The notes under the pieces were generated by a model. That model was not told where the DNA came from. It searched no databases and worked only from the letters and a program-made list of their open reading frames with translations. DNA of 64,000 bases from Alphaproteobacteria bacterium. GTDB lineage: Bacteria; Pseudomonadota; Alphaproteobacteria; JBFXJJ01. Shown one piece after another: positions 15,200 to 51,745 of this stretch. The stretch is from positions 1-64,000 of the forward strand of contig JBFXJJ010000009.1 in the NCBI GenBank assembly GCA_050175015.1. The letters are read 5' to 3'. Made by a program: the position numbers and the translations under genes. Within the stretch, counting starts at the first letter, position 1. Every line of letters begins with the position of its first letter.

Positions 15200-15210
15200 T
15201 GTTAATAAAC

Positions 15211-15314
15211 TTGTTTTAAGGTAATCATGCGGGCAGCTTTACTTTTGTAAAAGTAAAATCAAAACGTTTTCTACATCGCTATCATAGCTACAACTAAGCG
15301 CAAAACACTCTAAG
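15211..15314 (+). repeat. REP/MITE-like repeat, copy 1
   Basis: Core TTTACTTTT-GT-AAAAGTAAA at 15238-15257; flanks resemble the 56.8-57.2 kb copies; ends ACTCTAAG. Confidence 0.6.
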
Positions 15315-15332
15315 TATCATCTGCTATAAAAT

Positions 15333-15372
15333 AAAAAAAGCTTCTTTAAATTAATAAAGAAGCTTTCTTTTT
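15333..15372. terminator. Terminator between LysR and tRNA-Leu
   Basis: AAAGCTTCTTTA-AATTAA-TAAAGAAGCTTT. Confidence 0.7.
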
Positions 15373-15459
15373 TGGTAGGGGCGGGGAGACTCGAACTCCC
15401 AAGAACATACATTCGGTGGATTTTGAATCCACTGCGTCTACCAATTCCGCCACGCCCCC
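15373..15459 (-). tRNA. tRNA-Leu(CAA)
   Basis: GGGGGCG acceptor stem, GGAATTGGTAGAC D arm, GTGGA-TTCAAAA-TCCAC anticodon arm, long variable arm, GTTCGAGTC T loop, encoded CCA; 87 nt. Confidence 0.96.
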
Positions 15460-15494
15460 AAAATAAGAGCTAAAAAGCAAGCTAAGCATAAAGC

Positions 15495-15538
15495 AAACTT
15501 AAAATATTGCAATTAAAAAAATGCAATATTTTAAGTTT
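15495..15538. terminator. Perfect 17-bp inverted repeat, probable terminator of the virB-like operon
   Basis: AAACTTAAAATATTGCA-N10-TGCAATATTTTAAGTTT. Confidence 0.6.
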
Positions 15539-15577
15539 TATCCCATCTATTTTAGATTTAATAGTGTTCGTTCAAAT

Positions 15578-16303
15578 TTATCTAGCGCTGCTTGAGCCTT
15601 CATCGACCATTCTAGATACGGCAACTTCCACATCATTAGCATAAAGATTAAGCATTTGTTGGAAGTAGAAAGCACTGGTCAACTGAAGAAGGGTATTGCC
15701 AACAACATCATCTCTTACTGACTCAGCATTGGAAATTACACTCTCAATATCTTCAAGAGGTTTAGCTCTGTTTTCCGTTTCACCTTTAGAAGCAATAGCT
15801 GTGGCATAGCCGTTTTTAGCAGTATCAAGCATAAAGTTTTTACCAGCTAATTTATGCTCTTTAAGATTTTTCATATCGCTCGTAACGTTTGTTCCCGCAA
15901 CACCTTCTTTGTTGATAAAACTCACAAGAGCATTTTCAACTTTTTTGCTGTCTCTGTTGTCATATTTGTAATCGTCAGCGCTTAGGTTCCATTTTGAGTA
16001 AGATCCTCCAGATAAAGGAGATTCACTCATAGGAAGCATTTTTTCTTCCAAATTTTCTTTCATGGACTTTCTTGCCGCAGTAAAAGTTGCCATACTGCCC
16101 TGTCCAATTAATTTGGAAGTTTTATCTATGGTTTTTTGAATGTCTTCCACATTTTCTTTTTGTTTCTTTGAGTTTTTAGTATTAGCTTTTATCTGCTGGA
16201 TTGCAAAGCTATCTTTGATTGCGACTTGAGCGCCAGCTCTTTGCGGCATTAAAACAGTAATGGCAAAAAGAGCTAAAGTAATAACAGAAAATCTTATTTT
16301 CAT
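15578..16303 (-). CDS. VirB5/TrbJ-like secreted protein (putative T4SS minor pilin)
   Basis: Signal peptide then AQVAIKDSFAIQQ (like the VirB5/TrbJ 'V.D' N-terminus); helical body; directly downstream of virB4. Confidence 0.5.
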   Translation of the reverse strand: MKIRFSVITLALFAITVLMPQRAGAQVAIKDSFAIQQIKANTKNSKKQKENVEDIQKTIDKTSKLIGQGSMATFTAARKSMKENLEEKMLPMSESPLSGGSYSKWNLSADDYKYDNRDSKKVENALVSFINKEGVAGTNVTSDMKNLKEHKLAGKNFMLDTAKNGYATAIASKGETENRAKPLEDIESVISNAESVRDDVVGNTLLQLTSAFYFQQMLNLYANDVEVAVSRMVDEGSSSAR

Positions 16304-16402
16304 GAGAAGACCCCTTCAAAAAAACATTTTTCTATCTTTAATAATAGCAAAAAAACATTTATAAAGCGAATTATTTTTGATTAAATTTTATTTAAAATTT
16401 TA

Positions 16403-18838
16403 TTAAGCTATTTCGAGAAATTTCTCAATAAAGCCTTCTCTGCCGTATTCTCTGGCTAATTCCTCGGCTAAAAGCACGTGTTTACGTCCAGAAGAATAGA
16501 GCTTCAAATAAGGTCCAAGACCACCTAAATCAACATCAAGAACCACAGACTCCCCAATTGCAGGACGACTTACAAGGATAGCATATTTTAAATCTTTGAA
16601 GGCTCGACCAAAAATAAAGTTCTTTTCGGCTTGGGTTAGTTTCCAATTTTCATAGTCTTCTTCCATAGCTTGAGGATTTCTAAAGAAGATAACGGTTTGA
16701 CATTGTCCACGAATAACTTCGCCTAAACCCAAATTATCAACAATATTAGGTTGTTGAAATGCGCAAAGATATGCCTGACGTTTTTTTCTTCCTTCTTGGA
16801 GTCCAACAACAAAGCTGTCTTTAAACATCGGGTGTTTTAACATAGGGGCGGTTTCGTCGATCATAATTAAGCTTGGATCACCTGTTTCGCCTGTTGTCGA
16901 TTGAATTCGGTGCATAATATAACTGATAACAGCAGGGGCAAGGGTTTCATCTTCAAAGATATGGGTAAAATCGAAAGCCATAAATTTAGAAGAAAGCTCT
17001 AAGTTGTCATCTTGGGAATTAAATAATGGGCCATATTGATCCATATTAACCCATCTATAGAGTTCTCGGCGCATAAAACCTGTTGGAGAAAAGCAAGCCT
17101 TGTGAAGGTTAACCAGTGTTCTTTCTTCTGGTCTTAAATATTCAAAAGCGGTTGTAACGGCTCTCGCAATTTCTTTTTCGGACAAGGCATCGCTTGCCAG
17201 AGTAATAGCTTTCAGCCATCTTCTTAAGAAAGCTCTGTTTTCAGATGTATCTCTGCAAGCAAAAGGATTTAAGGCAACAACATCACGTTCTTTATCATCT
17301 TCACCATCACTGCTGTCGAAATTAACATAAGAGCCCCCGACTGCACGGGTAAAAATTTCAACACCCCTATGTCTATCAAAAAAGTAAACCCGCAAATTGC
17401 GATGGCGCATAGCCTGTCCCGCAAGAAAAGCAAGGAGGGTCGTTTTACCTTGTCCCGTAGGACCAATAATACAGCAGTGAGCAACGGCGTTGTCTTCTTG
17501 AGTGACGTGAAACTGCCACTGATAAGAGGAACCTGTGACGGTTCTAAAGATGGAAATAGCTCCTTCACCCCAGTCGCTTTTGGGTAAGCCCTCAGTTGTT
17601 TTTTCAAGGCAGACGGAGCAAGCCACAACCCTTGATAAGTAACGATAAGTTCGAGGATAAATCTCATAAGTGGGGAATTGTGCAAAGAAAGTTGCCTGAG
17701 CTATCCAGCCTTCTCTTACTGGGGTCATACCAAACATACGGCAAATTCTTTCAACCTCAGATTCCCCAAAGTTTAGCTCTTCTTCATCATCTCCAAAAAG
17801 AAATATTGATAAACCATAAAAGGCAATAGTTTGGAAATCTTCATCTGCATCATTTAATGTTTCTAAGGCTTTATCATATTGAGCCCATGTTGGACCAAAA
17901 AGAACCATTTTCTTTTGTTGGAGCAGCATAGCAATAGCTTTTGCTTTTGGAATAGGATTAACGTTGTGAACGACGTTTAGTTCACAGTCAATTGATAAAA
18001 GACTTGCGACCAATTGTTCGTCCATAGCATCTGAAGACGCTCTTATTCCCATAACAATACATTTTTTTTCTCGATCACCAGAGAAAAATTTAATTATTCC
18101 TTTTTCTTTAGTGAAATGAATATGATCAGCAGTTAATAAGGAATTCAAATCCTCGCCATCAGAATACCGTGTTTTGGGAGCTGGTCTGGTTACAGGGCTA
18201 CATAGAGTTGCAAATAAATGAAATGGACTATCTGTTGCTTTGCTGGTTTCGGTTTCAAACATTACCTCTATATGGTACTCATCAAGAGTAGCGGTTAAGG
18301 CTTGAGAAGCTTGATTTAAGTCTCTTTCATTGTTTTTGCGGTCGGCAACAGAGAGCACAATATAATGGTTGTTACGATAAATACGGCTTAAGTTTGCGGC
18401 CCACATTCTAGCGATTTGAGCCAAAATAGAAACTTCATGTCCCCCTTTTTCATTGGCAGGCATTTTTTCTCTTATAGTTATAATTCTGGCAATTACTTCA
18501 AGCTCGGCTAAACTGTCAATCCATGCTTTTCGTGCTTCTAGCATAGCCTCTCTTATTTGAGGAGCAACAAAAGTCATATCAGCACCGACAACTTTGAAAA
18601 CGCGAACCAACGAGCCGTTTTTACAGCGTATTGTAGTGCCATCGTGCATCAATCTGTCGAAAGGTAGAAAATCTGCGACACGGCTTTCTTTCGGTTTAGG
18701 TAAAATAAGATAGCCGAGCCTAGTCGCAAACAAGCTCGCAAATGCAGCGGCAGAAACAAAACCTATGATACCAATAAGAGTTTCAAATGTTGTAACATTT
18801 CTAACAAAGGCATCTATTGCATTAATATCAGGGTGCAA
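16403..18838 (-). CDS. virB4: VirB4 family type IV secretion ATPase
   Basis: Walker A IIGPTGQGKT, FFDRHRG, LNPF, Walker B LIMIDET, GRKK, QCQTVIFFRNP; likely TTG start at 18838 seven nt after GAGGA (ORF track start is 18898). Confidence 0.92.
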   Translation of the reverse strand: MHPDINAIDAFVRNVTTFETLIGIIGFVSAAAFASLFATRLGYLILPKPKESRVADFLPFDRLMHDGTTIRCKNGSLVRVFKVVGADMTFVAPQIREAMLEARKAWIDSLAELEVIARIITIREKMPANEKGGHEVSILAQIARMWAANLSRIYRNNHYIVLSVADRKNNERDLNQASQALTATLDEYHIEVMFETETSKATDSPFHLFATLCSPVTRPAPKTRYSDGEDLNSLLTADHIHFTKEKGIIKFFSGDREKKCIVMGIRASSDAMDEQLVASLLSIDCELNVVHNVNPIPKAKAIAMLLQQKKMVLFGPTWAQYDKALETLNDADEDFQTIAFYGLSIFLFGDDEEELNFGESEVERICRMFGMTPVREGWIAQATFFAQFPTYEIYPRTYRYLSRVVACSVCLEKTTEGLPKSDWGEGAISIFRTVTGSSYQWQFHVTQEDNAVAHCCIIGPTGQGKTTLLAFLAGQAMRHRNLRVYFFDRHRGVEIFTRAVGGSYVNFDSSDGEDDKERDVVALNPFACRDTSENRAFLRRWLKAITLASDALSEKEIARAVTTAFEYLRPEERTLVNLHKACFSPTGFMRRELYRWVNMDQYGPLFNSQDDNLELSSKFMAFDFTHIFEDETLAPAVISYIMHRIQSTTGETGDPSLIMIDETAPMLKHPMFKDSFVVGLQEGRKKRQAYLCAFQQPNIVDNLGLGEVIRGQCQTVIFFRNPQAMEEDYENWKLTQAEKNFIFGRAFKDLKYAILVSRPAIGESVVLDVDLGGLGPYLKLYSSGRKHVLLAEELAREYGREGFIEKFLEIA

Positions 18839-19118
18839 ACTTGTTTCCTCTACATTTATATAAATTCTTTGAAGGCCTTGACATTGGCCCAAAAGCATTG
18901 GTCATAGTTGAGATATGGGGTTCTTTTGTTCCCCAGAATATAATGAAAAAATGAACAATAACAATAGAAAAACAAAAAACTAAAGGGTTGAAATCGCCCA
19001 GTCCAAGAAACATAAACATAACAGGAAACTGAACGCCCAAGTTTGCTAAAGCAATAACAAATGGAGCCCAAAGAAGTCTAGGCGGTGCTGCAACTGCTTT
19101 TAGTATAGGAACTCTCAT
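18828..19118 (-). CDS. virB3: VirB3 family type IV secretion protein
   Basis: PILKAVAAPPRLLWAP, two TM segments, KEPH, C-terminal GNKFAP; immediately upstream of virB4. Confidence 0.8.
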   Translation of the reverse strand: MRVPILKAVAAPPRLLWAPFVIALANLGVQFPVMFMFLGLGDFNPLVFCFSIVIVHFFIIFWGTKEPHISTMTNAFGPMSRPSKNLYKCRGNKFAP

Positions 19119-19428
19119 TTTTTTACCTGATCTTTAAAGGTTTTTATGCTGCTTAATATATATATAATATTTATTTTAAATAGAAACCATAAAAATTCAA
19201 AATTAATTTAAAAAATATTACAAAACAACATCGTAGCACAAATATGATTAATTTAGAGTTAGTCGATTAAAAAAAATTTATACACAAAGATAATTTTTTT
19301 AGAACAAAAATAATTATCTTTTTTGACAATTTATATTAAATAACACTATATATTGTTATTAAAGTTGTTTACTTATACAATAATGTGTTTTTGTTTTTAA
19401 CGGTATTTTTTAAGAGAGCTCCTGTTTT

Positions 19429-22365
19429 ATGAGGTTAGCTAAAACCAAAATTGTAATTGCTGTTTTGATTTTAGGTGCGTTTTTGATAATGGCTTCAGGA
19501 CGTATGCTTTGGGCTAAAGATGCGTCTGAAACAAACAAAAGTGAAAAATTAAATGATTTTTCGGTTTTTCAGGGCAATAGTTCCAAGGGATTTTTTGCGT
19601 CTAAAATAATGCCAATTCTTAGCTTGAGTAAGAAAATTAAGCCTTTTCCTTATAATTCTGCGGATAATTTAACTGAAGGCGAAGATAATATTGTTCCTAG
19701 GACGAAACCTGTTGTTGCGGTTGAGGTTAATAATCTTGAAGACAATAACAAGAAAACTGAAAAAGCAGGTTTAGTTAAGGGTGATTTTTTAAATGAAGCA
19801 AACCAAGACAGTAGTCTAATTACATTATCTCCGCTTGATTTTGTCTTAGTTGATAATGATACTTTAGATATGTCTCTTGTTGATAAAGATGCGATTAAAA
19901 AAGAAAACGCTGAAAATAATGATAGTAGCGGGGCATCAAAAATAGTTTCTGAAGAAAATCTTGCCTCAACGTCTTCTCCAGAAAGATTGAGTTATCCTTT
20001 GCCGCCACCTTTACCGCCTCGTTCATTCTCTGATGCTGGCAATTATTCTAAATTGCCGTTGCCTCCGCATCTTCCGCCAAGCCGGCAGCAAGAAATTGCT
20101 TTAAAGGCAATAGAAAATAACAAATCACAAACCACAAACAGCGTCCTTAATAGTCAGGGCGCTAAAGTTGCAAATGCAGAATTGGAGGAATTGAAACCTT
20201 TAATTCCAGCTGAATTTGCTGCAGATAATTCAAACATTAATAAGTTTAAGAAGAATAGCGGGCAAAGTGCAGATGAAGCCCTTTTGGCAGAAAAAAGAAC
20301 CTTTATCCCTATTAATACTAAGCGTTCTCAAAAAGAAACAAATGTTTCTGCTAACTTAAAAAAGTTTACGGCTTCGGTTGATGACGCTAATCAAAGAAAT
20401 GAAGACAAAAGCACAGTCATTGCTAGTAGTAATGATGACTTAGACAAGGGTTCTTTGCAAACAGTTGAAGGAACATATCTTCAGCCGAAGAAACCCATTG
20501 GCGAAACTTGGCAGCCATATAATTTAGATAATCAAAATGAGGCTACGTCTACATGGGGAGAAGCTCGAATTTCTTCTCAAGAAGCTGACAATAAGGAAGA
20601 AGAATTAAAAGCTGAGCGACAAGCAAAAGCAGATATTGTCGTCCAAAAAACCCAGAATTATGAGGAAGAAGCAAAAGAAATAGCCGCATCTAATAATAAA
20701 ATGCTTGAACAAAACAAAAATGGCACTGGCATCAAAGAAGAGGTATTAGCTTCTAATCAAGATATTAGAAATAGTGAGAAATCTAGGTATGGTTTAAAAA
20801 CTTGGGAAAATCGTTCAGGATTAGATGAGCATAATTGGCAGCCTGTAAAGCCATATGATTTGAATGAAGACAAAACCGAGGAACCAGATTTTCAATTTGG
20901 CAGCAAAGATGGCAAGGTTGCTGTGGCGCCTGACAATAGCATATACGGCGAAAGATTAAGACCCGTTAACAGAGATGAAAACACGAACCTAAATAACAAA
21001 TATCAAGCATATAACAATCAAATAGATAACAAACCTAAACAGTTTGCAGCAAATGTCGTTAAGCTTGGTAACAATTCTGTGAATAATGATAAACAAATAA
21101 AAAAGACATCTAATTCTAATGCGTTTATCTCCGTTTTTCCCAATCAAAATGCGGCTTGCGATTTATGCGATGAGTATCAAGATTTAGACAGTGATGCGAT
21201 TATAACGGCTAAGGCAATTCCTGTGTTTAAAGAAAAAGATATTGTCTCCAGAGAGATTTTGGAACCAACCTATAACAGTGGAAAAGAATTAGTACAAACA
21301 GCATCAAAGCAAAAAATGTCTTATGATGAAAACAAAAAACAGGTTTTAGAGGTTGCGGGGAATTATGCCGATGGAGCTTCTATGGTTGACTATGATAGGC
21401 AGACATCTTACTTGGTCACAGATAATAACCAAGATAATGCAAAAACTGAGATTGCAGCAGAGTTAGACAATCATAATGCTTCAGAAGTAGATATGAGCAG
21501 TGTTAACTTAGATAATGAAGAAAAAGATATTGCTTTATCAGAGAAAATGGAAGAAGACGCAACGTATTTGAATAAAAGAGCCGAAATTAATGAGAGTATA
21601 AATAAATATCGTGAAGATGGCAGTGAAACTCATTTTGCTAATGCGGGAGATGCTGCGGCTACAACGGCAAAAAAACAACCGCTTTTGAAACCTATTGAAG
21701 ACGATATGCCGTCTTTTGCTCCTGATGGCAAGGGCAATATTGGTAAAGTTGATGCCCCAGTTCCAGTTAAAGCTGATAATTATGGTGGCAGTGCAGCAGA
21801 AAGTGGTTCTGATGAAATCGCATCAACATCTTTTATGGATAAACTTTCAGCGTTATTTGGAGGGGCAGATACAGGAGCTGCTCAGAATTCAGAAAAAGGG
21901 ACATTAGAACAAGCAAGCGCTATGGCTGGTGGGCAAAGATATGATAGGGCTAATGATTTGCTGGATCAAATAGATAGGCCTAAATCAAATATCTCAAAAA
22001 TAAGCAATGAAGAAGAAGAGGCTAACCAAAAAGTAATTCCATCTGAACTAAGATTGTTTTTTGATCCTGGAAAATCAGAAATGTCTGGAAATACGCTTGT
22101 TTGGCTAGATAAATTTGCAGAGAAAGCTGCGATTGACCGCTCACAGTTAATTGAGGTTAGAATGGCAATTGATTATACTGGAAATCTTCAAGCTCGAAGA
22201 TTTGCATTGCTTCAAAGTACCTTTGTTGCCAAAGGAGTTAAAGCTAATCAGGTGGTTCCGATTTTTTCATCAAGACCTTCTGATAGTATTGTTTTAAGAA
22301 TGACAAAAGACCAAACTAAACGTATGACAGAAAAATTAGAAGATAAGGGATATATTAACTGGTAA
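19429..22365 (+). CDS. Large secreted low-complexity protein with C-terminal OmpA-like domain
   Basis: N-terminal hydrophobic signal; N/E/K-rich linker; C-terminal LFFDPGKSEM...LDKFAE...ARRFALLQSTFVAKGV. Confidence 0.65.
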   Translation: MRLAKTKIVIAVLILGAFLIMASGRMLWAKDASETNKSEKLNDFSVFQGNSSKGFFASKIMPILSLSKKIKPFPYNSADNLTEGEDNIVPRTKPVVAVEVNNLEDNNKKTEKAGLVKGDFLNEANQDSSLITLSPLDFVLVDNDTLDMSLVDKDAIKKENAENNDSSGASKIVSEENLASTSSPERLSYPLPPPLPPRSFSDAGNYSKLPLPPHLPPSRQQEIALKAIENNKSQTTNSVLNSQGAKVANAELEELKPLIPAEFAADNSNINKFKKNSGQSADEALLAEKRTFIPINTKRSQKETNVSANLKKFTASVDDANQRNEDKSTVIASSNDDLDKGSLQTVEGTYLQPKKPIGETWQPYNLDNQNEATSTWGEARISSQEADNKEEELKAERQAKADIVVQKTQNYEEEAKEIAASNNKMLEQNKNGTGIKEEVLASNQDIRNSEKSRYGLKTWENRSGLDEHNWQPVKPYDLNEDKTEEPDFQFGSKDGKVAVAPDNSIYGERLRPVNRDENTNLNNKYQAYNNQIDNKPKQFAANVVKLGNNSVNNDKQIKKTSNSNAFISVFPNQNAACDLCDEYQDLDSDAIITAKAIPVFKEKDIVSREILEPTYNSGKELVQTASKQKMSYDENKKQVLEVAGNYADGASMVDYDRQTSYLVTDNNQDNAKTEIAAELDNHNASEVDMSSVNLDNEEKDIALSEKMEEDATYLNKRAEINESINKYREDGSETHFANAGDAAATTAKKQPLLKPIEDDMPSFAPDGKGNIGKVDAPVPVKADNYGGSAAESGSDEIASTSFMDKLSALFGGADTGAAQNSEKGTLEQASAMAGGQRYDRANDLLDQIDRPKSNISKISNEEEEANQKVIPSELRLFFDPGKSEMSGNTLVWLDKFAEKAAIDRSQLIEVRMAIDYTGNLQARRFALLQSTFVAKGVKANQVVPIFSSRPSDSIVLRMTKDQTKRMTEKLEDKGYINW

Positions 22366-22623
22366 TAAAAATATTGTTGACAACTATACTGTTTTGTGGG
22401 TCAACCATAGAACTTTAAGGCTTTTAAGCAATAATAACGAGTCGCAAAAGAATTATGACAAAATTTTTTTTTCGATTCTATTATAGTAAATATTGCTCTT
22501 TTGAAAAAACTCTGTTACAAGATTTAGTATTATAATAATATTATTATGACTTTATATAGAGAAATCTAAAAAACATATAAAAATCAATATGATAGATTTT
22601 TCTGATTGGGAGAAGCAAGAACA

Positions 22624-23283
22624 ATGTTGTTATCGACAGCCAAAAAACAACTCTTAAAATGTAGGACATTTGCCGTCTTATTTTTGCTATTTTTGACAGC
22701 GTCTTGTGCTGGGCCTTTAGGTTGGCCGTGGCAAAATGTTTCATCTTATCAGGTGCCAGATTACACACAGTCTCCAATGGCAAATGTTGTGCCACAAGGC
22801 GAATTAGGGGAAAGAGCCCCTGCTGATCATTTGGTTTCGGACAACGATGTTGGGGCTACTTATGGCTCTTCTCTGCCTCCAGGTTATCCACAGCCTATGA
22901 ATGGATATTTGCCTGATCAGGTTTTTGGTGAAGAAAGCCTAAATGGTGATCAGATGGCGGCCCTTGGCTATCAAGAAAATCCTCAAAATGGTGATGCTGT
23001 AGAGGATTTTGCTGATCCTGTCGAAGATTGGCTAGTACAGGAAGGGGCAACCTTGAAGCAGCTTCTTAGTGATTGGAGTGATCGTTCGGGGTGGCGTTTG
23101 GTTTGGAAGTCAAAAAGAGATTTTAAAATAGAAGCAGGTGCTATGCTTCGTGGTCGTTATGTCGATGTTGCATCGGCTGTAATCAGAAATATGGCTAGGG
23201 CTCGCCCAGCGCCAATGGCAACGTTTTTTAGAGGAAACAGGGTGTTGTTAATTGAAACACTGGAGGACGAAAATGCGTATTAA
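22624..23283 (+). CDS. TcpQ-domain lipoprotein (PilL/TcpQ-like type IVb pilus protein)
   Basis: Lipobox LTASC; WLVQEGATLKQLLSDWSDRSGWRLVW is the TcpQ pattern. Confidence 0.8.
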   Translation: MLLSTAKKQLLKCRTFAVLFLLFLTASCAGPLGWPWQNVSSYQVPDYTQSPMANVVPQGELGERAPADHLVSDNDVGATYGSSLPPGYPQPMNGYLPDQVFGEESLNGDQMAALGYQENPQNGDAVEDFADPVEDWLVQEGATLKQLLSDWSDRSGWRLVWKSKRDFKIEAGAMLRGRYVDVASAVIRNMARARPAPMATFFRGNRVLLIETLEDENAY

Positions 23284-24907
23284 ATTTTTTTTGAAGCCGA
23301 TTATTTTTGCATTATTCGTTGCTGCTTTTCCTTTGTTCTTTCTTTCAAGCTGTGCTGATATTTCCGATGCAGAGGCTACTGTTGCCCGCGATACCGATAT
23401 TATTACTGCAGCTTTAGATAAAAGCTCACTTCCAACAAAACCAAAAGATTTGGATTTTATTAAAATCAGAGATGATATTTGGCTTGGAGATACTAGTGTT
23501 CGTCACCAAGCTAGCGGTTTGCTTCCGTCTCAGTTCGAAAGATCTGATGGAATTACCCTTGTGAGCAATAAAGCTGTTGGTTTTTCAGAAATTCTTAAAA
23601 AAATTGGAGATTTAACAAAGCTTCCAATTAGGTATAGTGAAGAAGTTACAACGCTTTTAAATAGCGGTTCAACCTCATCAACATCAACGACGACTTCAAC
23701 CTCAGGTTCTGCAACCTCTGGTATTCCAGAAGATGGTCCGGGAACTATGATTTTGTCTTATAACGGTCCTTTAAGTAAATTGCTTGATCAGGTTGCTGTT
23801 AAATTTGGTGTCTGGTGGCGTTATGAATATGATGAAATTTACTTTTATACGATGGAAACTAAAACGTTTACTTTGTATTCACTGCCTTCCAGCCACAGTG
23901 TAAGTTCAAATCTTTCCAGTTCTAATGGATCTGGTGGTGCTTCTATTGATCAGTCTTTGGAAATATCTCTTAAATCTTGGGATACTGTTAAAGAAACTTT
24001 GACTAGTATGCTTAAATCCGATGGCAAGCTCGTAGTAGATCAAACGTCAGGTACAATAACGGTTACTACAACTCCTAATAATATGAGAGAGATAACAAGA
24101 TTTATTAATGAGCAAAACGAAAGATTATCAAGACAAGTTGCAATTAATATTAAATTGCTACAAGTTGATCTTGAAAGCACATCAAAATTTGGTTTGGATT
24201 TAACGGCTGCTTTTGCTTGGCCATCAGCTACTGGTTTAACCAGTACTTTAGATGGTCCGTATTCTGCTACTGATTCTACTACAGGTGTCACAATGGCTGT
24301 TGTTGGTGCTACAGGAAAGCATTGGGAGCATTGGAATGGTTCGACGGCTATTATGGACGCTTTAGCAAAACAAGGCGATGTTTCTTTGCTTACAACGTCT
24401 ACTGTTACAACTCTCAATAATAAACCAGCACCTATTCAGGTTTCTAAAACACAGAGCTATGTAAGAAGTATAACTTCAACAATTCGAGATAGTGGTTCAT
24501 CTAAAGACGTTTCTATTGAGCCTGCTGATATGGAACTTGGTTTAACGATAGATGTTCTTCCTAGAATTTTAGATCACGGCAGGGTGCTTTTAATGTTTTC
24601 TATGAACTTGATTGAGCTTTTAAACCTTGATAAATTTGAATCTTCTGATTCTGTGGTTCAGCTTCCAACGATTGAGACCCGTGGTTTCTCTCAAGAAATA
24701 GCGATGCGTTCAGGTTCTACTTTAGTGTTAACTGGTTTTGAAAAGATTCAAAACAAGTTTGATAAAACAGGTATGGGGCAACCAGACTTTCAGCTTTTAG
24801 GTGGGCTTAACAGTTCAGAAAAAACACGAAACGTTTTGGTTATTTTGATAACCCCTGAAGTTCTTGATTCTCCGCTTTCTCCTGAATCTAGAATATCTGG
24901 TTTTTAA
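23273..24907 (+). CDS. pilN: Type IVb pilus outer-membrane secretin lipoprotein (PilN/BfpB family)
   Basis: GGAGG-ATG, lipobox LSSC, Ser-rich N-region, YNGPLSKLLDQVA, TLNNKPAP, SGSTLVLTGFE, VILITP. Confidence 0.88.
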   Translation: MRIKFFLKPIIFALFVAAFPLFFLSSCADISDAEATVARDTDIITAALDKSSLPTKPKDLDFIKIRDDIWLGDTSVRHQASGLLPSQFERSDGITLVSNKAVGFSEILKKIGDLTKLPIRYSEEVTTLLNSGSTSSTSTTTSTSGSATSGIPEDGPGTMILSYNGPLSKLLDQVAVKFGVWWRYEYDEIYFYTMETKTFTLYSLPSSHSVSSNLSSSNGSGGASIDQSLEISLKSWDTVKETLTSMLKSDGKLVVDQTSGTITVTTTPNNMREITRFINEQNERLSRQVAINIKLLQVDLESTSKFGLDLTAAFAWPSATGLTSTLDGPYSATDSTTGVTMAVVGATGKHWEHWNGSTAIMDALAKQGDVSLLTTSTVTTLNNKPAPIQVSKTQSYVRSITSTIRDSGSSKDVSIEPADMELGLTIDVLPRILDHGRVLLMFSMNLIELLNLDKFESSDSVVQLPTIETRGFSQEIAMRSGSTLVLTGFEKIQNKFDKTGMGQPDFQLLGGLNSSEKTRNVLVILITPEVLDSPLSPESRISGF

Positions 24908-24927
24908 CAGATAGAGGTGTTTAGGCT

Positions 24928-26259
24928 TTGGTTGAAGATTCTACAGAAACAGGACAAGATGTAGCAGATAATGAAAATCCGCCTTGGGGAGCGACGATTA
25001 CTCTTGGCGAAACGGTTTATGCTGCTAGTTTGTTCTGGCAGCCTTTGCAAGATCCATCAGACCCTCTCCCTGAAATTAATGAAACAGCAGAAGGTGTTTT
25101 CTTAAAACCTGCAGATGTTTATTGTGTAAGAACAGGAAACACCCCTCAATATGGTCTTGGTGTTAACGAGGAAGGACATAAATCTGGTCAGGTTTCTGCT
25201 GCTATTGCTTTAGCAGAGGCGTTTTCTGAATTTTCATCTTTTGTTTCTGTTTTTAAGGTAAAAGAAGGCTGGTGGTTTTTAGCTGTTCGTAATGATCTTA
25301 TTCTTTCTGAAGAAGATGTTCTCTATTTAAACGAAGATGATGCGCAAAGAGCATTCTTTTCTATGATGGCAGTTCCTGACTGGGGACGTAAAATAGCTCC
25401 CGCAAGTTGGGGCGTTGATGGCACAATAGAAATGGATTTGGAAGCTGTTTTAGCTAACAGCCGGCAAGTCAAGCTGCGCAATTTAAGAGGCATAAAAGAG
25501 AAAAAAGCTTTAATTATTATTGGTGCAGGAGCTTTACTCGCTCTTTGGATTTTAGTGAAAGTTTTTGGCTCGTTATTTGGAGGCAATAGCAACCGTATCA
25601 TTGCTGTAGCACCGCCGTCTAAAGTAAAAAAAGAAGTGCAGGTTAAAGAAACAATCTTTCAAAAAGAAGAGGTAAAAAAACCTTGGGAAGATTTGGCTGT
25701 ACCTGATGATGTTTTGAAGTATTGCTTAGAAACAATCAACCAGTTGAAGCAGGTTACTATTCCAGGTTGGGGTGTAAATGAATTTGCATGCAATCCTGTT
25801 GGTGTTTCTGCTTCATGGAAGAGAGAATGGGGCAGGATAGAATGGCTTAATAGGTCATTTGATGAAAATAATATAAGGTTTGCAAATAGGGTTCTTTCTC
25901 CTGATGGCAATAGTTTTTTTGGTGTTATGCTCCTAACAAATGTAAGGTTTGCACAATCAACACCGAATTTATCTAAAACTGAAATTGTCAATGAGCTAAA
26001 TGAGTTTTTCCATAGCGTTAATGTGCCAGTTACGGTAACAGAAACTAAGATTGACAGAAAAGAAGCAAAAAAAGGCTTTTCACTTAAAACAGAAGAAAGT
26101 ATTGTTAGTATTAAATTTAGCTTTAATTCACAATATGATCCTTTAATGTGGTCTCGTGTCTTGACGATGTTTCAAGGTCTTGAGATTATTACTATAAGGT
26201 ACACTCCTAGCACCAACACTTGGGTTTATGAAGGACAAATCTATGAACGGGCATCTTAA
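24928..26259 (+). CDS. Type IVb pilus accessory protein (PilO2-like)
   Basis: YAASLFWQP, SAAIALA, GWWFLAVRNDLIL..D, one TM helix, KPW...C...PGW...C; located after the secretin. Confidence 0.75.
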   Translation: MVEDSTETGQDVADNENPPWGATITLGETVYAASLFWQPLQDPSDPLPEINETAEGVFLKPADVYCVRTGNTPQYGLGVNEEGHKSGQVSAAIALAEAFSEFSSFVSVFKVKEGWWFLAVRNDLILSEEDVLYLNEDDAQRAFFSMMAVPDWGRKIAPASWGVDGTIEMDLEAVLANSRQVKLRNLRGIKEKKALIIIGAGALLALWILVKVFGSLFGGNSNRIIAVAPPSKVKKEVQVKETIFQKEEVKKPWEDLAVPDDVLKYCLETINQLKQVTIPGWGVNEFACNPVGVSASWKREWGRIEWLNRSFDENNIRFANRVLSPDGNSFFGVMLLTNVRFAQSTPNLSKTEIVNELNEFFHSVNVPVTVTETKIDRKEAKKGFSLKTEESIVSIKFSFNSQYDPLMWSRVLTMFQGLEIITIRYTPSTNTWVYEGQIYERAS

Positions 26260-27679
26260 TAAATATTTCTTTATAATGTTAGTTTTACTAACTTTTTCTC
26301 TGATGGCGGTACAAAACAAATCGATATCACAAGATTTGTTTGATGACTCGTTTTTAGGAAGTGCAGTTACAGATAAAACAACACCTAAGATTGGTTCAGA
26401 AAAAACTTCTGAGGCTGACAGTGAAAATGCGGCGAGTAAAGCTGTAGAAAAAATTAATAATAAAGCGGTTGAAGCTAAAGAAAAAACAGCAATTAAAATA
26501 CCTTCTATTATTAAGAACTCTGAGAAAAAAGATGATGCTAAGAAGAATACAAATGGAAAAGATCCTTTAGTAAATTTGAATGCCGAGAAAAAAACCTATA
26601 AAACAGTATCAGATTTAGCGTCTTCTAATCTAAAAAAGGATTTGCTGGCACAAATAGCAAAACCTAGTGTTGATATTTTAGGGATAACTCCATCTGAAAT
26701 CTTTAGGCAGATGGCTGATTTAGAAAGAGAAAATGCCCTTTTAAATTTAGAAATACAAAGACAGAAACTTCAAACTACGATTGAAGAAATTGAAAGAGGA
26801 AGAAGAGCTGCGGAAGAAGAAGAAAATGCTGCTCAAAAAGAAGCTGAGCTTAAAGAACAAGAACTTCAGCTTCAAAAAGAGCGTGATGATCAAGAATTTT
26901 TGTTAAAACAGCAAGAACTTGAGAATGAACAAAAGAAAATCTTCTTAGCTGATGAAAAAGATAAATATATTGCAACGCTAAAGAAGAGCTTGGAAGATCA
27001 AAGACGTGTTCTTATGGAAAGAATAAACGATCTTGAAAAGCAAAATACCGATGAAAAGAAAATAAAAGAGGCCTTTATTAAGCAGACTGGCGAGACTATA
27101 AAAGCCCTTTCTCAGATTGCTGAAAAGAAAATTGTTGATGTTGAAACTGTTGCTAAAATGTCTTGTCCTGTATGTAAGGTTTGCGAGGTATGTCCTGTTT
27201 GTGAGGAATGCCCAGATGTCGAAGAGATCTTGGAGCAGCATAAAGAAGAATTTAAATGCAAAAGTTCTGGTGGCAGTGGTGAAAACGGTGAAAATAGAGC
27301 TGCAGATCTTTATTCTATAGTTGAAATCAAAGGTCAGAATGATGACTTGATAGTAAGGTTAGCTACAGCGGAAGGTTTGAACTTCTTTGTTAAGAAAGGC
27401 ACCGTTCTTAACAGTGGTCATATTGTAAAAGATATAAAGAAAAACCAAATTGTTTTAGAAAAGGACGGTCAAGAAGAAATTATAGCTTTCCCTGTTGGTG
27501 GAATAATGGCAGTAGAGCCGGCATCAAAAGTTGAAGATGAAGACGTTGACTCTGAGACAACAGAAGACCTTGCTCCTGCTAAAACGGAAGAGAAACCTTC
27601 AGGAAGGCCAACAAAGAAAGCTAAAAATCCTAATGATACCAATGTTAATGTTAGAGCGCCGTTTACTATGAAAAAATAG
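26243..27679 (+). CDS. Extended PilP-like protein with coiled coil and Cys-rich repeat
   Basis: Signal peptide, long coiled coil, CPVCKVCEVCPVCEECP, C-terminal IVEIKG...VKKGTVL.SG..VKDI beta domain; sits between pilO and pilQ. Confidence 0.6.
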   Translation: MNGHLNKYFFIMLVLLTFSLMAVQNKSISQDLFDDSFLGSAVTDKTTPKIGSEKTSEADSENAASKAVEKINNKAVEAKEKTAIKIPSIIKNSEKKDDAKKNTNGKDPLVNLNAEKKTYKTVSDLASSNLKKDLLAQIAKPSVDILGITPSEIFRQMADLERENALLNLEIQRQKLQTTIEEIERGRRAAEEEENAAQKEAELKEQELQLQKERDDQEFLLKQQELENEQKKIFLADEKDKYIATLKKSLEDQRRVLMERINDLEKQNTDEKKIKEAFIKQTGETIKALSQIAEKKIVDVETVAKMSCPVCKVCEVCPVCEECPDVEEILEQHKEEFKCKSSGGSGENGENRAADLYSIVEIKGQNDDLIVRLATAEGLNFFVKKGTVLNSGHIVKDIKKNQIVLEKDGQEEIIAFPVGGIMAVEPASKVEDEDVDSETTEDLAPAKTEEKPSGRPTKKAKNPNDTNVNVRAPFTMKK

Positions 27680-27712
27680 TTTTTTACAAATTTATTTTTA
27701 AAGAAGTAAAAA

Positions 27713-29461
27713 ATGCCAAAAATAAGAAAAAGATTTGATGCCCCAGATGGTACAGAACCAAGCAGTTCTGGTGGAGGTGTCGGTCTATCTGATTTAGCCA
27801 ACCAAGCGGCTTCTGGCGGAGAAGGGCAACCAGGTCAACCTTCTTCTGAAGATACGGCAATTAAAGCTTTAGAAGGTTCTGATGTTCAAGGTCAAGTAGC
27901 AGAATTTTTTGCAGATGGTAATGAGCTTATAACAGCGGTTGAGGGCTCCCTTAATTTAAAAGAAGACACAAGAAGTTTATTAGCGTTATTTTCTAATGGT
28001 CGCTTTTTAGTTTGCGATACACATAAGTTTGACGGCCGTGTTTTAAGCTTTGAAGTTATGGCAAGAAAACGCCGACTTCAAGTTGCTAAGCCAGAATATG
28101 TTCCGATGGCTTTAGTTAAAGCTGTTTATCAATATGCTGCTGATGCTGCTAATAGCAAAATACAAATAGGTGTAAGTAATGGCGAAGATGATCAGCTGCA
28201 GATGCAGCGAGATTTCGTTACAATTATTTCTCGAGCGGCTAAAATTAAAGTTTCAGATATTCATATCATTGTGGCTGACCATACGCAGGTTATTTTTAGA
28301 ACCAACGGCATTATGCAGACTGAAATGGAGTATAATAAGGATTGGGGAGAATCGTTTGTTAGAGCGGCTTTTGCTTCCGCTGATATTTCTGATGCTAACT
28401 ATAGCCAAAACGAATATCAGGGAGCCCAAAAATTGGGCAGAACACCTCTTAGGGGGTCCAAGGGACGCTTAATGCTTCCTAAAAACGTGCTAGCTATCAG
28501 ACTTCAATTTAACCCGATTGCTTTTGGTTCACAGTATCTTGTTATGCGTATTCTTTATGCCGATGATGACCCTGAGCATGCCGGCGATTTAACCAGTTTG
28601 GGTTATACCGAAGTTGAAGCCGAAATGTTTTTCCGTATGAGGTCAGTGCCTATTGGTCTTTGTATTGTTGCGGGTCCTACGGGATCTGGAAAGTCAACGA
28701 CGCTGCAAAGAAATATGATTAGTCTTTTACAGGAAAGAAACTTTGAGTGTAATCTTTTGACGGTGGAAGATCCCCCTGAATATCCTATTCCTGGTGCAAG
28801 GCAGATGCCTGTTACCAATGCGAATACGGAAGCTCAAAAAGATGAACAGTTTACCAAAGCATTGTCCGCAGCGCTTCGTTCCGACCCTGATATTATTATG
28901 GTGGGAGAAGTCCGAACGCTTTCCGCAGCCCAGCTTTCGTTTAAAGGCGCTCTTTCAGGGCACGGTATGTGGACAACCTTGCACGCTAATAGTGCGCCTG
29001 CGGTTGTGATGCGACTTCGAGATATGGGAGTTGAAACGTTTAAACTTAACGATCCTGAAATTATGAAAGGGCTTATATCTCAGCGTTTGTTCCGAAGGCT
29101 GTGTCCTCATTGCCGCATACCTGCATTAGAGCAGTTAAACCACCCCGCGGTTGAACGTTTAAAGATAGCCTTGGGGGATTTCGGTTTGGAGCAGAGTTTC
29201 TTAAAAGGGCCAGGTTGCAAGCATTGCGATTACCGAGGTATTAAGGGAAGAGTTGTGGTTGGAGAACTGATTATGCCTGATGCAACTTTTTTGGAACTTT
29301 TAGTTTCGAACCAAACGAGAAAGGCAATAGATTACTGGACAGGTGATTTGAATGGCAGAACAATGAAAGATGCTGCTATTGAGCGTATGCTTAGAGGAAA
29401 GTTGGATATTGAAGAGGTCGAACGTTGGTGTGGTCTTTTGGATCAAAAACCTGTGTATTGA
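27713..29461 (+). CDS. pilQ: Type IVb pilus assembly ATPase (PilQ/GspE family)
   Basis: SDIHI, GPTGSGKST, TVEDPPE, LRSDPDIIMVGEVR, GH..WTTLHANSA, CPHC/CKHC zinc motif. Confidence 0.9.
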   Translation: MPKIRKRFDAPDGTEPSSSGGGVGLSDLANQAASGGEGQPGQPSSEDTAIKALEGSDVQGQVAEFFADGNELITAVEGSLNLKEDTRSLLALFSNGRFLVCDTHKFDGRVLSFEVMARKRRLQVAKPEYVPMALVKAVYQYAADAANSKIQIGVSNGEDDQLQMQRDFVTIISRAAKIKVSDIHIIVADHTQVIFRTNGIMQTEMEYNKDWGESFVRAAFASADISDANYSQNEYQGAQKLGRTPLRGSKGRLMLPKNVLAIRLQFNPIAFGSQYLVMRILYADDDPEHAGDLTSLGYTEVEAEMFFRMRSVPIGLCIVAGPTGSGKSTTLQRNMISLLQERNFECNLLTVEDPPEYPIPGARQMPVTNANTEAQKDEQFTKALSAALRSDPDIIMVGEVRTLSAAQLSFKGALSGHGMWTTLHANSAPAVVMRLRDMGVETFKLNDPEIMKGLISQRLFRRLCPHCRIPALEQLNHPAVERLKIALGDFGLEQSFLKGPGCKHCDYRGIKGRVVVGELIMPDATFLELLVSNQTRKAIDYWTGDLNGRTMKDAAIERMLRGKLDIEEVERWCGLLDQKPVY

Positions 29462-29526
29462 TTTTTTATTCATTATAACTTATTAATAATACTTGTGTTG
29501 AAAATAGTTTAAAATAAGAAGAACAG

Positions 29527-30651
29527 ATGGCAAAAGCAGTCTCAAACGAGAAAAGAACGTCACTAGCAAAAGCTGCGAAACAACTGAGTGTTGCGGAACA
29601 GTATTATGCTAGGCTTATATGTTCTATGAGCAGTAAAACAAGGTTAAAAATTTATCGTAAACTTGCTTCTTTGCTTCATAACCGTTTTTCTCTTATGGAC
29701 GCTTTGGAACGTGTTCATAATATTATCACAAACAATGGAAAAAAACCTAACGAACCTATGGCTTTAGCTCTTGCTAGCTGGTCAAAAAATCTATCAAATG
29801 GTCAATCTTTTTCCGAAGCGTTAAAAGGCTTTGCCCCTAACCGAGAAAGACTGATGCTTTCTGTGGGTGATGTTTCCGATCTTGAAAGCGCTTTAAACAA
29901 CCTTATTAAGGTGGCAGAGGGTTCTGCCAAAATGATTGGTCCTATCATCTCGGCGTTGGCATATCCAGCGTTCTTGGTGATTATGACGGTTGCTGTGGTT
30001 TATGCTATTGGTGCATACATGGTTCCTCCTATGATTGAGGCGGCTCCTGATACGATTTGGCGAGGCGTTGCAAAAGATGTTGTTGGCTTGTCTAACTGGA
30101 TTATTAAATATTGGGCTTTAGCTTTTGCTGTGCCTCCTACTTTATTCATAATTATATATTTCACCTTAGGAAACTGGACAGGATTTATAAGAGTTATTTT
30201 TGATAGGTTTCCTCCTTGGTCAATTTATCGAGTATTTACTGGGGTTTGCTGGCTTTTAGCGCTAGCTGCTTTGGTTAAAGCAGGAACGCCAGTTTCTATT
30301 GCTTTGCGTTCTTTGCGGGCAGATTCTAATCGTTACTTAAGGGAAAGAATTGATAAAGCCTTAGTTTACGTTAATAACGGTGATAACTTAGGTGATGCTT
30401 TGTTTAAAACAGAAACAGGGTTTCCTGATGAAGAGATTATTGGAGACCTTAGAATTTATTCAGAATTGGATAATTTTGAAGCCGCATTGGATCAAATGGC
30501 TAATGATTGGCTGGAAGAAAGTGTAACGGGTATTGCTGATAGAGCCGCTCTTCTTAATACAATCGCAATCTTAATGGTCAGTGGTGTGATTGCTTGGGCG
30601 GTTATGGGTGTGTTTGAAATGCAAAACCAAATCACGAATTCGATGAAATAA
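29527..30651 (+). CDS. pilR: Type IVb pilus inner-membrane platform protein (PilR/GspF family)
   Basis: NGQSFSEALK, ALAYP, PPWSIYR, GDNLGDAL...FPD; three TM segments. Confidence 0.87.
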   Translation: MAKAVSNEKRTSLAKAAKQLSVAEQYYARLICSMSSKTRLKIYRKLASLLHNRFSLMDALERVHNIITNNGKKPNEPMALALASWSKNLSNGQSFSEALKGFAPNRERLMLSVGDVSDLESALNNLIKVAEGSAKMIGPIISALAYPAFLVIMTVAVVYAIGAYMVPPMIEAAPDTIWRGVAKDVVGLSNWIIKYWALAFAVPPTLFIIIYFTLGNWTGFIRVIFDRFPPWSIYRVFTGVCWLLALAALVKAGTPVSIALRSLRADSNRYLRERIDKALVYVNNGDNLGDALFKTETGFPDEEIIGDLRIYSELDNFEAALDQMANDWLEESVTGIADRAALLNTIAILMVSGVIAWAVMGVFEMQNQITNSMK

Positions 30652-30675
30652 AATCAATAATTTTTGAAGAATTGT

Positions 30676-30706
30676 TAAAGGAACTTTTTTTAAAAAAGTT
30701 CCTTTA
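30676..30706. terminator. Hairpin ending the pil operon
   Basis: TAAAGGAACTTTTTT-T-AAAAAAGTTCCTTTA. Confidence 0.6.
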
Positions 30707-30779
30707 ATTTTGTGTAGGTAATAATATTTATGCTTATGTAGAGAATAACGATGCTCTAAAAGCTGTCGCTTTTGTCCTA

Positions 30780-30821
30780 GCGGACGGCTTTTACTTTTAT
30801 AAAAGTAAAAACAAAACTTTT
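30780..30821 (+). repeat. REP/MITE-like repeat, copy 2
   Basis: Perfect 22-bp palindrome TTTTACTTTTATAAAAGTAAAA at 30789-30810 followed by CAAAACTTT as in the other copies. Confidence 0.6.
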
Positions 30822-31493
30822 TTAAGGAATATCAGCAATAATCTGAGCTAAATCTTTCATATCTGAAAAAACACATCTTGCCCCAGCGTCTTTTAGCACG
30901 TCATTATGACCAGTTTGACAGTGGCTTCCTCCAGTAAAACCAATAACATTCATACCAGCTTTTTTGGCGCCCTTTATACCCGATGGACTATCTTCAACAA
31001 CGAGGCATTTAACAGGGGCTATCAGCATTTTTTCTGCGCAATAATAAAAAATATCAGGGGCAGGCTTACCGTTTCTAACAAGGTTAGTGCTGAAAATATG
31101 AGGGGCAAAAAAGTCATATAATTTGGTTATTTTTAAAGTGCTTTCAAGGCGTTCTGGCTTGCTTCCAGAAGCGATGCATACTGGAAGAGTATTTTTTTTA
31201 AGGAATTGCTTAATACCTTTAATAGGTTTTAAAGTTTTGGCAAAAACGTTTAAAGTTTCCTGCATAACGTCGTCTTCGAAATTATCAGGAATAGTAATGC
31301 TTTGCTCTTCTTGCAGGATCCTATACATTTCTTCGGTTTTCATACCAGTAAAACGTTTTACAATATCTTGATATGTTATTTTAAAACCTAAACTAGAAAG
31401 CATTTTGGCTTCCGTTTGGCAGCCGCCTACTTCACTATCAATTAACACTCCGTCGCAGTCAAAAATAATTAATTCAATCATTGTTACTTCCAT
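30822..31493 (-). CDS. HAD family hydrolase
   Basis: IIFDCDGVLIDSE, IASGS, GKPAPDIF, VVEDSPSGI. Confidence 0.92.
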   Translation of the reverse strand: MEVTMIELIIFDCDGVLIDSEVGGCQTEAKMLSSLGFKITYQDIVKRFTGMKTEEMYRILQEEQSITIPDNFEDDVMQETLNVFAKTLKPIKGIKQFLKKNTLPVCIASGSKPERLESTLKITKLYDFFAPHIFSTNLVRNGKPAPDIFYYCAEKMLIAPVKCLVVEDSPSGIKGAKKAGMNVIGFTGGSHCQTGHNDVLKDAGARCVFSDMKDLAQIIADIP

Positions 31494-48777: not shown

Positions 48778-48893
48778 AAATTTTTTAAGCCTTGTTGAAA
48801 ACGGGTATTATTTCGAAATATAATTATCGTAAACTACAAGCTTGTGGTATATCAACATTAGAGTTTTGTTTTATAAAAAAAGGTTCGTTGTTT

Positions 48894-51731: not shown

Positions 51732-51745
51732 AAAGGACTTAGTAG

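Follow-up and report, generated by a model that had tools for sequence, protein, structure and literature searches.

Neighbouring islets of a scattered VirB-type secretion system and a type IVb pilus on the chromosome of a gut-associated lineage of Alphaproteobacteria

Why would virB3-, virB4- and virB5-like genes lie back to back with a type IVb pilus (T4bP) operon on a chromosome, next to a tRNA gene and among housekeeping genes? This question is raised by a block of ten open reading frames (ORFs) in the 64,000-nucleotide stretch of DNA analysed here (the window), which comprises positions 1-64000 of contig C9 of the alphaproteobacterial genome G000 (2.53 Mb in 49 contigs, 99.4% complete, 0.56% contamination). 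We found that both gene sets are intact and are kept together in uncultured, mostly gut or rumen Alphaproteobacteria with small genomes, and that the block is neither a relic nor an island. We consider it reasonably probable that the block consists of two neighbouring chromosomal islets, each from an envelope machine that is complete in the genome but scattered over it, and that contact through the pilus would be followed by transfer through the VirB-type type IV secretion system (T4SS).

All ten ORFs are open and full length at the coordinates in Table 1, as judged by ORF calls and their translations, and the virB3/4/5-like genes on the minus strand indeed diverge across 310 bp from the pil operon on the plus strand, as the original prediction had described. 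VirB4 is recognized by family models, with 354.7 bits (E 1.1e-105) against TIGR00929, a score under that model's 643-bit equivalog cut-off, and with a match to PF03135 above cut-off. Its Walker A motif, GPTGQGKTT, is invariant in alignment A1, and a search of the whole genome with the window VirB4 as query returned one VirB4 match. The 96-residue protein encoded ahead of VirB4 contains two hydrophobic stretches and matched no Pfam or NCBIfam family; pairwise comparison gave 35% identity (E 2e-8) to a Microvirga plasmid protein annotated as VirB3 and a match (E 5e-7) to the product of the VirB3-position gene on an Erythrobacter plasmid, and a homologue precedes VirB4 in 75 of the 80 related loci listed from the wider scan described below.

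The 241-residue protein encoded after VirB4 has a signal-peptide-like N-terminus and is helical by prediction. It matched no Pfam or NCBIfam family, none of 25 post-VirB4 proteins matched the Pfam VirB5 family PF07996 (the Pfam scan gave coiled-coil noise only), a PDB sequence search with the post-VirB4 profile returned nothing specific, and a single-sequence fold of the protein was unusable (predicted local distance difference test, pLDDT, 36.8). Its ESM Atlas model aligns to a cluster named 'TrbJ' with a TM-score of 0.68 over 190 residues. The corresponding gene of the relatives also encodes a secreted protein, ranging from 173 to 927 aa among the listed clade-A loci (defined below), and these post-VirB4 proteins share an '(I/F)PT(F/L)D' motif directly after the signal peptide. 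A 24-protein profile of them aligned to the post-VirB4 protein of the Erythrobacter plasmid (hhalign probability 94%, E 1.3e-7), the alignment being confined to the first 71 columns at the N-terminus. From its position, the N-terminal motif and the Atlas structure match, the 241-aa protein is a probable VirB5/TrbJ analogue. Of the proposed virB3-virB4-virB5-like trio, VirB4 is thus upheld by family models and VirB3 by pairwise matches, with VirB5 indicated by position, Atlas model and N-terminal profile only.

On the other side of the gap, the order tcpQ/pilL-pilN-pilO-pilP-pilQ-pilR is borne out by matches to PF10671, TIGR02520, PF06864, PF00437 and PF00482, with PilP matching TIGR03021 below cut-off (28.2 bits, E 3.1e-6, cut-off 34.65). 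PilN narrowly exceeds the cut-off of its model (289.7 versus 287.65 bits), the PilO match covers nearly the whole of PF06864 above cut-off, and the best plasmid relatives of PilQ are PilQ/BfpD-type ATPases at 36-38% identity, two of which are annotated bfpD.

The operon is headed by a gene for a 978-aa protein that had been described as OmpA-like. It consists of an N-terminal hydrophobic membrane anchor, a low-complexity linker of ~830 residues and a C-terminal domain, and matched no Pfam or NCBIfam family. The C-terminal domain recurs in 25 related loci, conserved and in the same place; its AlphaFold2 (AF2) model, with a pLDDT of 79, has a Pal/MotB-C fold, and a Foldseek search with this domain returned 66 PDB chains at E<=0.001, with Pal, OprF-C and MotB-C at the top (E 3e-6 to 1e-5 for Pal, OprF-C and the A. 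baumannii OmpA-like domain). An Atlas lead also pointed to the OmpA-like assignment, and a PDB sequence search with the domain profile gave Pal as its best match at a non-significant E of 0.23. Since the fold is clear from the structure search, the description 'OmpA-like' is true of the last ~110 residues only, the rest of the protein being anchor and low-complexity stretch. Judging from the modelled fold, the protein is presumed to be the peptidoglycan anchor of the pilus machine.

As had been predicted, no pilin, prepilin peptidase, relaxase, integrase or type IV coupling protein (T4CP) family was matched in the block by Pfam and NCBIfam scans of the ORF translations, and profile searches of the host's own genome returned no relaxase, T4CP or A24 peptidase on contig C9. 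The virB and pilin genes that the block lacks do lie elsewhere in the genome (on C24, C3 and C4 for virB, on C7 and C24 for the pilins), as the original prediction had supposed, so the genome-wide absence expected of a relic was not observed. Contig C4 encodes two VirB8 (PF04335), a 484-aa VirB9 (PF03524, the one match of this family in the genome) and VirB10 (PF03743), all above cut-offs, as well as VirB11 (TIGR02788, E 6.6e-42, 143.6 bits, under the 249.95 cut-off). VirB10 is a protein of 1760 aa in which the TrbI domain follows ~1400 residues of beta-flower repeats (PF21785/PF21784), and between VirB9 and VirB10 lies a gene for a 1563-aa beta-flower/RHS-repeat protein; this gene and that for VirB10 occupy C4:43417-53394, equivalent to L119:2418-12395. 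On contig C3 stand four ORFs in tandem (706, 414, 694 and 676 aa); the scan covered the first three, each of which matches PF04610 (TrbL/VirB6) weakly, with 19-21 bits, below the 25.9 cut-off; elsewhere on the same contig is a 748-aa VirD4 (PF02534, 181 bits). Two VirB2 genes (PF04956, above cut-off) were located on C24, with an HldE-like gene on one side of them and a SpoU methylase gene on the other.

A PilS-family pilin (PF08805, 42.2 bits, above cut-off) is encoded at C7:198-785 and is followed directly by a gene for a PilT-like ATPase of 335 aa. A relaxed motif scan revealed a second pilin, a candidate minor pilin, at C24:17744-18340, whose processing motif, G|R(S/T)MIEM, is that of the first; the residue after the cleavage glycine is arginine in these pilins. 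A stand-alone A24 prepilin peptidase of 245 aa is encoded on C2. We also observed two Flp-type pilin genes, at C1:101.6-108.0 kb and C15:16.6-17.4 kb, both of them adjoined by a small A24 peptidase gene, with one of these pairs within 7 kb of a gene for a 475-aa T2SSE ATPase. Because A24 peptidase genes stand beside Flp-type pilins, one of them near a T2SSE ATPase, these are probably Tad loci separate from the type IVb pilus. Altogether, the parts of the two machines are spread over at least 6 contigs, and the two islets with annotated neighbours (the window block and the VirB2/second-pilin islet) are set among housekeeping genes.

We compared G000, the only genome of its order in the collection searched, with 40 sampled genomes from other families of the class. 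VirB4 is 58-81% identical in G002, G018, G023, G031 and G038, and 42% identical in G021 and G032. The whole layout recurs in the same order and orientation in G018 and G023, which belong to other families and have different flanking genes; in G023, pilR is immediately succeeded by a PilS/bundlin-family pilin gene, and the contig that bears VirB4 also encodes VirB11 and the giant VirB10, at a distance of 18 kb. PilQ of the relatives is 60-76% and PilO 32-48% identical, the PilT-like ATPase is 58-65% identical in G002, G018, G023 and G038, and VirB10 is encoded by open frames of 1280-2838 aa in these same four genomes, while no VirB10 match was obtained in G031 (63% complete). PilS-type pilin paralogues occur at 13 places in G038, five in G018 and four in G023, in genomes of 1.2-2.0 Mb, and could reflect pilin variation or a set of minor pilins. 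VirB4, PilQ, PilO, giant VirB10, PilS pilins and the PilT-like ATPase thus co-occur in G002, G018, G023 and G038 (4/40), which is weak evidence because the four genomes are kin. In the closest relatives G018, G002 and G023, identities are 67%, 58-81% and 67% for VirB4, and 71%, 76% and 70% for PilQ. The identities of the core enzyme PGK are 70%, 68% and 67% in the same order (61% in G031 and 59% in G038), so that VirB4 and PilQ are about as diverged as PGK, which fits vertical descent of both, judged by this single marker.

A wider scan of species-representative genomes added loci that are all from metagenome bins, mostly titled Alphaproteobacteria and including several Candidatus Enterousia, with rumen, caecum and human or animal gut as the named sources. 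At least 87 loci were confirmed, and 80 are among the matches listed; these we divided by VirB4 identity into clade A (at least 50%, 46 listed loci) and clade B (less than 50%, 34 listed loci). A divergent pil operon accompanies virB in 24 of the 46 listed clade-A loci, corresponding to 24 of the 35 that have at least 9 kb of sequence upstream. Among the listed clade-B loci, Ca. Enterousia included, genes for PilO/PilQ/PilR instead occur within 10 kb downstream on the same strand in 13 of 34; of the 29 loci whose downstream sequence reaches 9 kb or more, 12 have them there. The divergent layout is kept down to ~56% VirB4 identity among the listed loci.

A FastTree phylogeny was built from 80 VirB4 rows, with the window's included and the partial locus L101 omitted. 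It contains a 43-row clade (support 99) in which each major branch shows the divergent layout: the window has it, as do L071, L064, L061/L067 and the greater part of a subclade of 32 rows. The layout changes 9 times on this tree, compared to a mean of 21.5 after shuffling, and none of 500 shuffles was as low; this clustering reflects descent and is not an independent test. Five loci (L043, L050, L056, L104 and L117) are titled Lactobacillaceae, Lachnospiraceae, Bacteroidaceae, Muribaculaceae or Bacteroidales yet lie inside the alphaproteobacterial VirB4 clades, and these bins are probably mislabelled. Judging from the sequences of G018, G023, the wider loci and the VirB4 tree, the pairing of virB3-4-5 with pil is old, conserved and not patchy, being ancestral to much of the lineage.

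How might two such machines act together? PilQ and PilR would assemble PilS pilins, once processed by an A24 peptidase, into a fibre whose way out would be the PilN secretin, partnered by the TcpQ-domain lipoprotein, while PilO and PilP would join the inner- and outer-membrane parts and the OmpA-like protein would tie the pilus machine to peptidoglycan. The pilus could then bind another cell and be pulled back by the PilT-like ATPase, whereupon the VirB machine, powered by VirB4, VirB11 and VirD4, might move proteins, DNA or both across the contact, with VirD4 picking the substrate. The 310-bp divergent region that the two clusters share could co-regulate both. Scanned on both strands for promoter-like hexamers, it yielded 35 compared to 40.4 expected from shuffles and hence no excess over them, and an Rfam scan of positions 15000-31500 found the tRNA alone, with no family in the gap. 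Coupling of the pilus and the T4SS into an attach-and-inject apparatus, as originally proposed, is plausible, and a parasitic, epibiotic or predatory lifestyle may go with it. A more far-reaching version, in which a retractile T4bP would join a VirB T4SS whose VirB10 is giant, split and repeat-bearing in one co-regulated, contact-dependent feeding or attack apparatus directed at other cells throughout the lineage, in guts, rumens and comparable anaerobic habitats, with the virB3-5/pil unit as its regulatory core, seems to us unlikely on present evidence.

The first alternative to be weighed is that of a resident conjugation apparatus, in which the T4SS would be a mating pore and the T4bP would stabilise mating pairs, as on IncI2 plasmids; together they would move DNA, including the many relaxase-bearing mobilizable elements of the genome, which lack a pore themselves. 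Relaxases are plentiful in the host genome: eight PF03432 relaxases are above cut-off (on C10, at C3:14.7 kb, C2:80.8 kb, C4:200.9 kb and C8:60 kb, and on C21, C34 and C35, with a weak match on C33), the one on C35 also being the single MobA/MobL match and none lying on C9, and there are three T4CP genes. With eight relaxases and three T4CPs but a single VirB4, there is no other pore for mobilizable elements, and this genome would combine many such elements with a single possible mating pore. VirB4 is less than 40% identical to any plasmid VirB4 in PLSDB (72,556 plasmids). The nearest ones, from Microvirga pMVF16-3 (37.5%), Sphingosinicella (35%) and an Erythrobacter aureus plasmid (34.2%), are conjugative, and the two regions inspected, those of Microvirga and Erythrobacter, are compact clusters with MobA/MobL relaxases. 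The IncI2 plasmids offer a precedent of a T4SS with a mating-aiding PilS/PilV pilus, going by the available text of PMC13729200 and PMC9045228. However, a search for the single family PF03432 found no relaxase in G023 (87% complete), G038 (94%) or G031 (63%), all three of which keep both machines, nor in G021 (99%) and G032 (84%), both of which have the 42% VirB4 and no PilO match, and the system is kept in Ca. Enterousia, whose genomes are very small (less than ~1 Mb, according to the available part of PMC12306168). In addition, no PilV-shufflon-like gene was seen in the block, where no dedicated search for one was made. We therefore regard conjugation as the chief role of the system as improbable, though it would not exclude contact followed by transfer. 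Effector-translocating T4SSs can also mobilize plasmids.

Several findings weigh against our preferred reading of two islets from scattered machines that act by contact and transfer. The VirB5 assignment draws on position, N-terminal motif and Atlas structure match, every VirB6 match is below the Pfam cut-off, and each of the three A24 peptidase genes in G000 is a candidate for this pilus. Bins may hold misassigned contigs, and placing all parts in the same genome rests on binning. Vertical descent is argued from one housekeeping marker, for which G038 (59%) and G031 (61%) rank lower. Lastly, the pairing is missing in 11 of the 35 listed clade-A loci with enough flank, and in one clade-B locus genes for DUF374, LpxK and LpxC stand between the two clusters, so that the adjacency could be inherited synteny without joint function.

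These last two findings lead to a second alternative, that the machines are functionally unrelated and neighbours by descent, the pilus serving adhesion, motility or DNA uptake and the T4SS operating independently of it. It would also accommodate the absence of pil genes within 16-20 kb of the nearest plasmid T4SS clusters (two regions inspected) and the separate Tad/Flp loci in G000, which indicate that pili do not generally go together with the T4SS. Nonetheless, mere neighbourhood does not sit easily with a divergent layout that is retained, among the listed loci, down to VirB4 identities of ~56% and is represented in each main branch of the 43-row clade, nor with six marker genes that occur together in the same four of 40 relatives, weak as this latter evidence is among kin; we judge it somewhat less likely even than conjugation.

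Could the block still be mobile or the remains of something that was? A 33-nt direct repeat brackets it (15238-15270 and 30790-30822, 30/33 identical), consisting of a 9-bp-stem hairpin (TTTACTTTT..AAAAGTAAA) followed by AATCAAAACTTTTT, and was considered as an attachment (att) site pair; it was rejected because the same element is dispersed over 13 intergenic sites on seven contigs (C1, C2, C4, C6, C9, also at C9:89679, C12 and C15), where it looks like a terminator or a repetitive extragenic palindrome (REP)-like repeat. The block lies on the 5' side of tRNA-Leu, a repeat scan found no tRNA-fragment repeat at its other end, and family scans matched no relaxase, integrase or T4CP in the block or its immediate flanks. 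With no mobility gene and no att repeat at the locus, the view that it is not an integrative and conjugative element (ICE) or plasmid stands. GC content in 2-kb intervals is 0.34-0.42 within the block, reaching 0.38-0.42 over VirB4 and pilN-pilR, and is 0.33-0.35 just outside. Thus, a decaying remnant of a plasmid or ICE integrated at tRNA-Leu, which the adjoining tRNA gene, the lack of pilin, peptidase and most virB genes in the block and the difference in GC content might suggest, is largely refuted and very improbable in view of ten open, full-length ORFs, missing genes that are present elsewhere in the genome, the 5' position without a tRNA-fragment repeat, the dispersal of the 33-nt repeat, the absence of integrase and relaxase families from block and immediate flanks (and of relaxases from C9), and gene identities of 58-81% between families, which parallel those of PGK.

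The preferred reading, two islets of scattered machines, bears on how the hosts of this system live. Part of the relatives found here belong to the order Rs-D84 (Ca. Enterousia), common residents of gut and rumen with no known way to obtain the metabolites that they cannot make. PMC12306168 describes reduced genomes for Rs-D84/Enterousia and proposes a partner-dependent lifestyle; its available text does not mention 'secretion' and refers to pili only for a different lineage. A literature search, with supplements outside its scope, found nothing on this T4SS/pilus system in the RF32, Rs-D84 and Enterousia lineages. The T4SS and T4bP of G000, four sampled relatives and dozens of bins are thus a candidate machine for such a partner-dependent lifestyle, and a feeding or attack function, if true, would explain the metabolite supply of these metabolically deficient organisms.

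The immediate surroundings of the block are as had been described: the tRNA-Leu gene was confirmed by ARAGORN, and family scans identified the flanking genes as those for LysR, a HAD hydrolase, RecX, Hsp33 and an OTCase-like enzyme, with PGK, phosphoglucomutase and UDP-glucose dehydrogenase farther out in the window. From its sequence and place, the hairpin behind pilR is the probable end of the pilus operon (Table 1). Elsewhere, the window encodes a 758-aa Sel1-repeat protein (42572-44848) and two adjacent ORFs of ~980 aa (48792-54718), the first with many SLBB domains.

Table 1. Coordinates of the block, its divergent gap and its adjoining features in the window.
Feature	Position	Strand	Remarks
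tRNA-Leu(CAA)	15373..15459	-	left flank, outside both machines; ARAGORN; Rfam RF00005, 55.2 bits
Probable VirB5/TrbJ analogue, 241 aa, secreted, all-helical	15578..16303	-	directly downstream of VirB4
VirB4-family T4SS ATPase, 831 aa	16403..18898	-	TIGR00929, PF03135
VirB3-like small membrane protein, 96 aa	18828..19118	-	overlaps VirB4 start; pairwise matches to plasmid VirB3-position proteins
Divergent intergenic region, 310 bp, AT-rich	19119..19428	.	between virB3 and pilus operon; presumed promoters for both
978-aa protein, C-terminal OmpA-like domain	19429..22365	+	presumed peptidoglycan anchor of pilus machine
TcpQ-domain lipoprotein, PilL position, lipobox-like LTASC	22606..23283	+	PF10671, 60 bits, E 2.1e-16
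PilN-family type IVb pilus secretin, lipobox-like LSSC	23252..24907	+	TIGR02520, PF00263
PilO (PAP_PilO family) pilus assembly protein	24928..26259	+	PF06864, 65.5 bits, E 5.2e-18
PilP-like protein, 483 aa, long coiled-coil insert	26228..27679	+	TIGR03021; between PilO and PilQ
PilQ-type assembly ATPase (GspE/PilB superfamily, T2SSE)	27713..29461	+	PF00437, 223.6 bits, E 4e-66
PilR-type inner-membrane platform protein (GspF/PilC family, T2SSF)	29527..30651	+	PF00482, 98.3 bits, E 4.1e-28
Terminator-like hairpin, 16-pair stem then T run	30674..30708	+	23 bp after pilR; consensus scan

Which known systems does this arrangement resemble? The closest pairing is that of the IncI2 plasmids (R721, TP114), where a P-type T4SS is likewise accompanied by an R64-type pilus composed of PilL/N/O/P/Q/R/S homologues, and in which, as stated in the available text of two studies, the PilS/PilV pilus aids mating by bringing cells together for the T4SS and matters in the gut (PMC13729200, PMC9045228). 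By contrast, the pairing described here is not plasmid-borne: the genes of G000 are chromosomal, located among housekeeping genes and scattered over at least 6 contigs, the locus has no relaxase, oriT or replication gene and, with no dedicated search made, no PilV shufflon was seen, and G000 possesses a PilT-like ATPase and a giant split VirB10. The plasmid clusters of Microvirga and Erythrobacter have the same local order of VirB3, VirB4 and the gene in VirB5 position, but there it forms part of a compact contiguous VirB2...VirB11-VirD4 cluster beside a MobA/MobL relaxase gene.

The pilus genes share PilN, PilO, PilP, PilQ, PilR and PilS members and the order L-N-O-P-Q-R with the pil clusters of R64 (IncI1), PAPI-1 and ICEs, from which they differ in the relocated pilin, the gene with the 978-aa OmpA-like-domain product at the head of the operon and the chromosomal host; moreover, neither PilM nor the PilT transglycosylase was identified. 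As for the giant VirB10, CagY of Helicobacter pylori is a VirB10 homologue to which repeats add more than 1000 residues, whereas VirB10 of G000 carries beta-flower repeats and its gene comes after one for a separate repeat protein, of 1563 aa.

The rvh system of the Rickettsiales, to which the islets had been likened, resembles that of G000 in being a chromosomal P-type T4SS laid out in islets in Alphaproteobacteria with small genomes; we know of no type IVb pilus partner for rvh, no dedicated search having been made. The hallmarks of rvh, according to the available text of PMC11077975, are duplicated RvhB4, RvhB9 and RvhB8, multicopy RvhB6 and the lack of a VirB5 analogue, and the same source relates a proposal that extracellular rickettsial lineages turn the T4SS on other microbes. 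Two of these five hallmarks recur in G000, namely duplicated VirB8 and, in the form of three weak TrbL matches among four tandem ORFs, multicopy VirB6, while two do not, as VirB4 and VirB9 gave one match each; on the fifth, what G000 shows is a probable VirB5/TrbJ-like gene after VirB4. The comparison with the Rickettsiales islets is therefore an analogy only, in which G000 appears as a second alphaproteobacterial case, besides the Rickettsiales, of a VirB system kept in chromosomal islets with duplicated parts.

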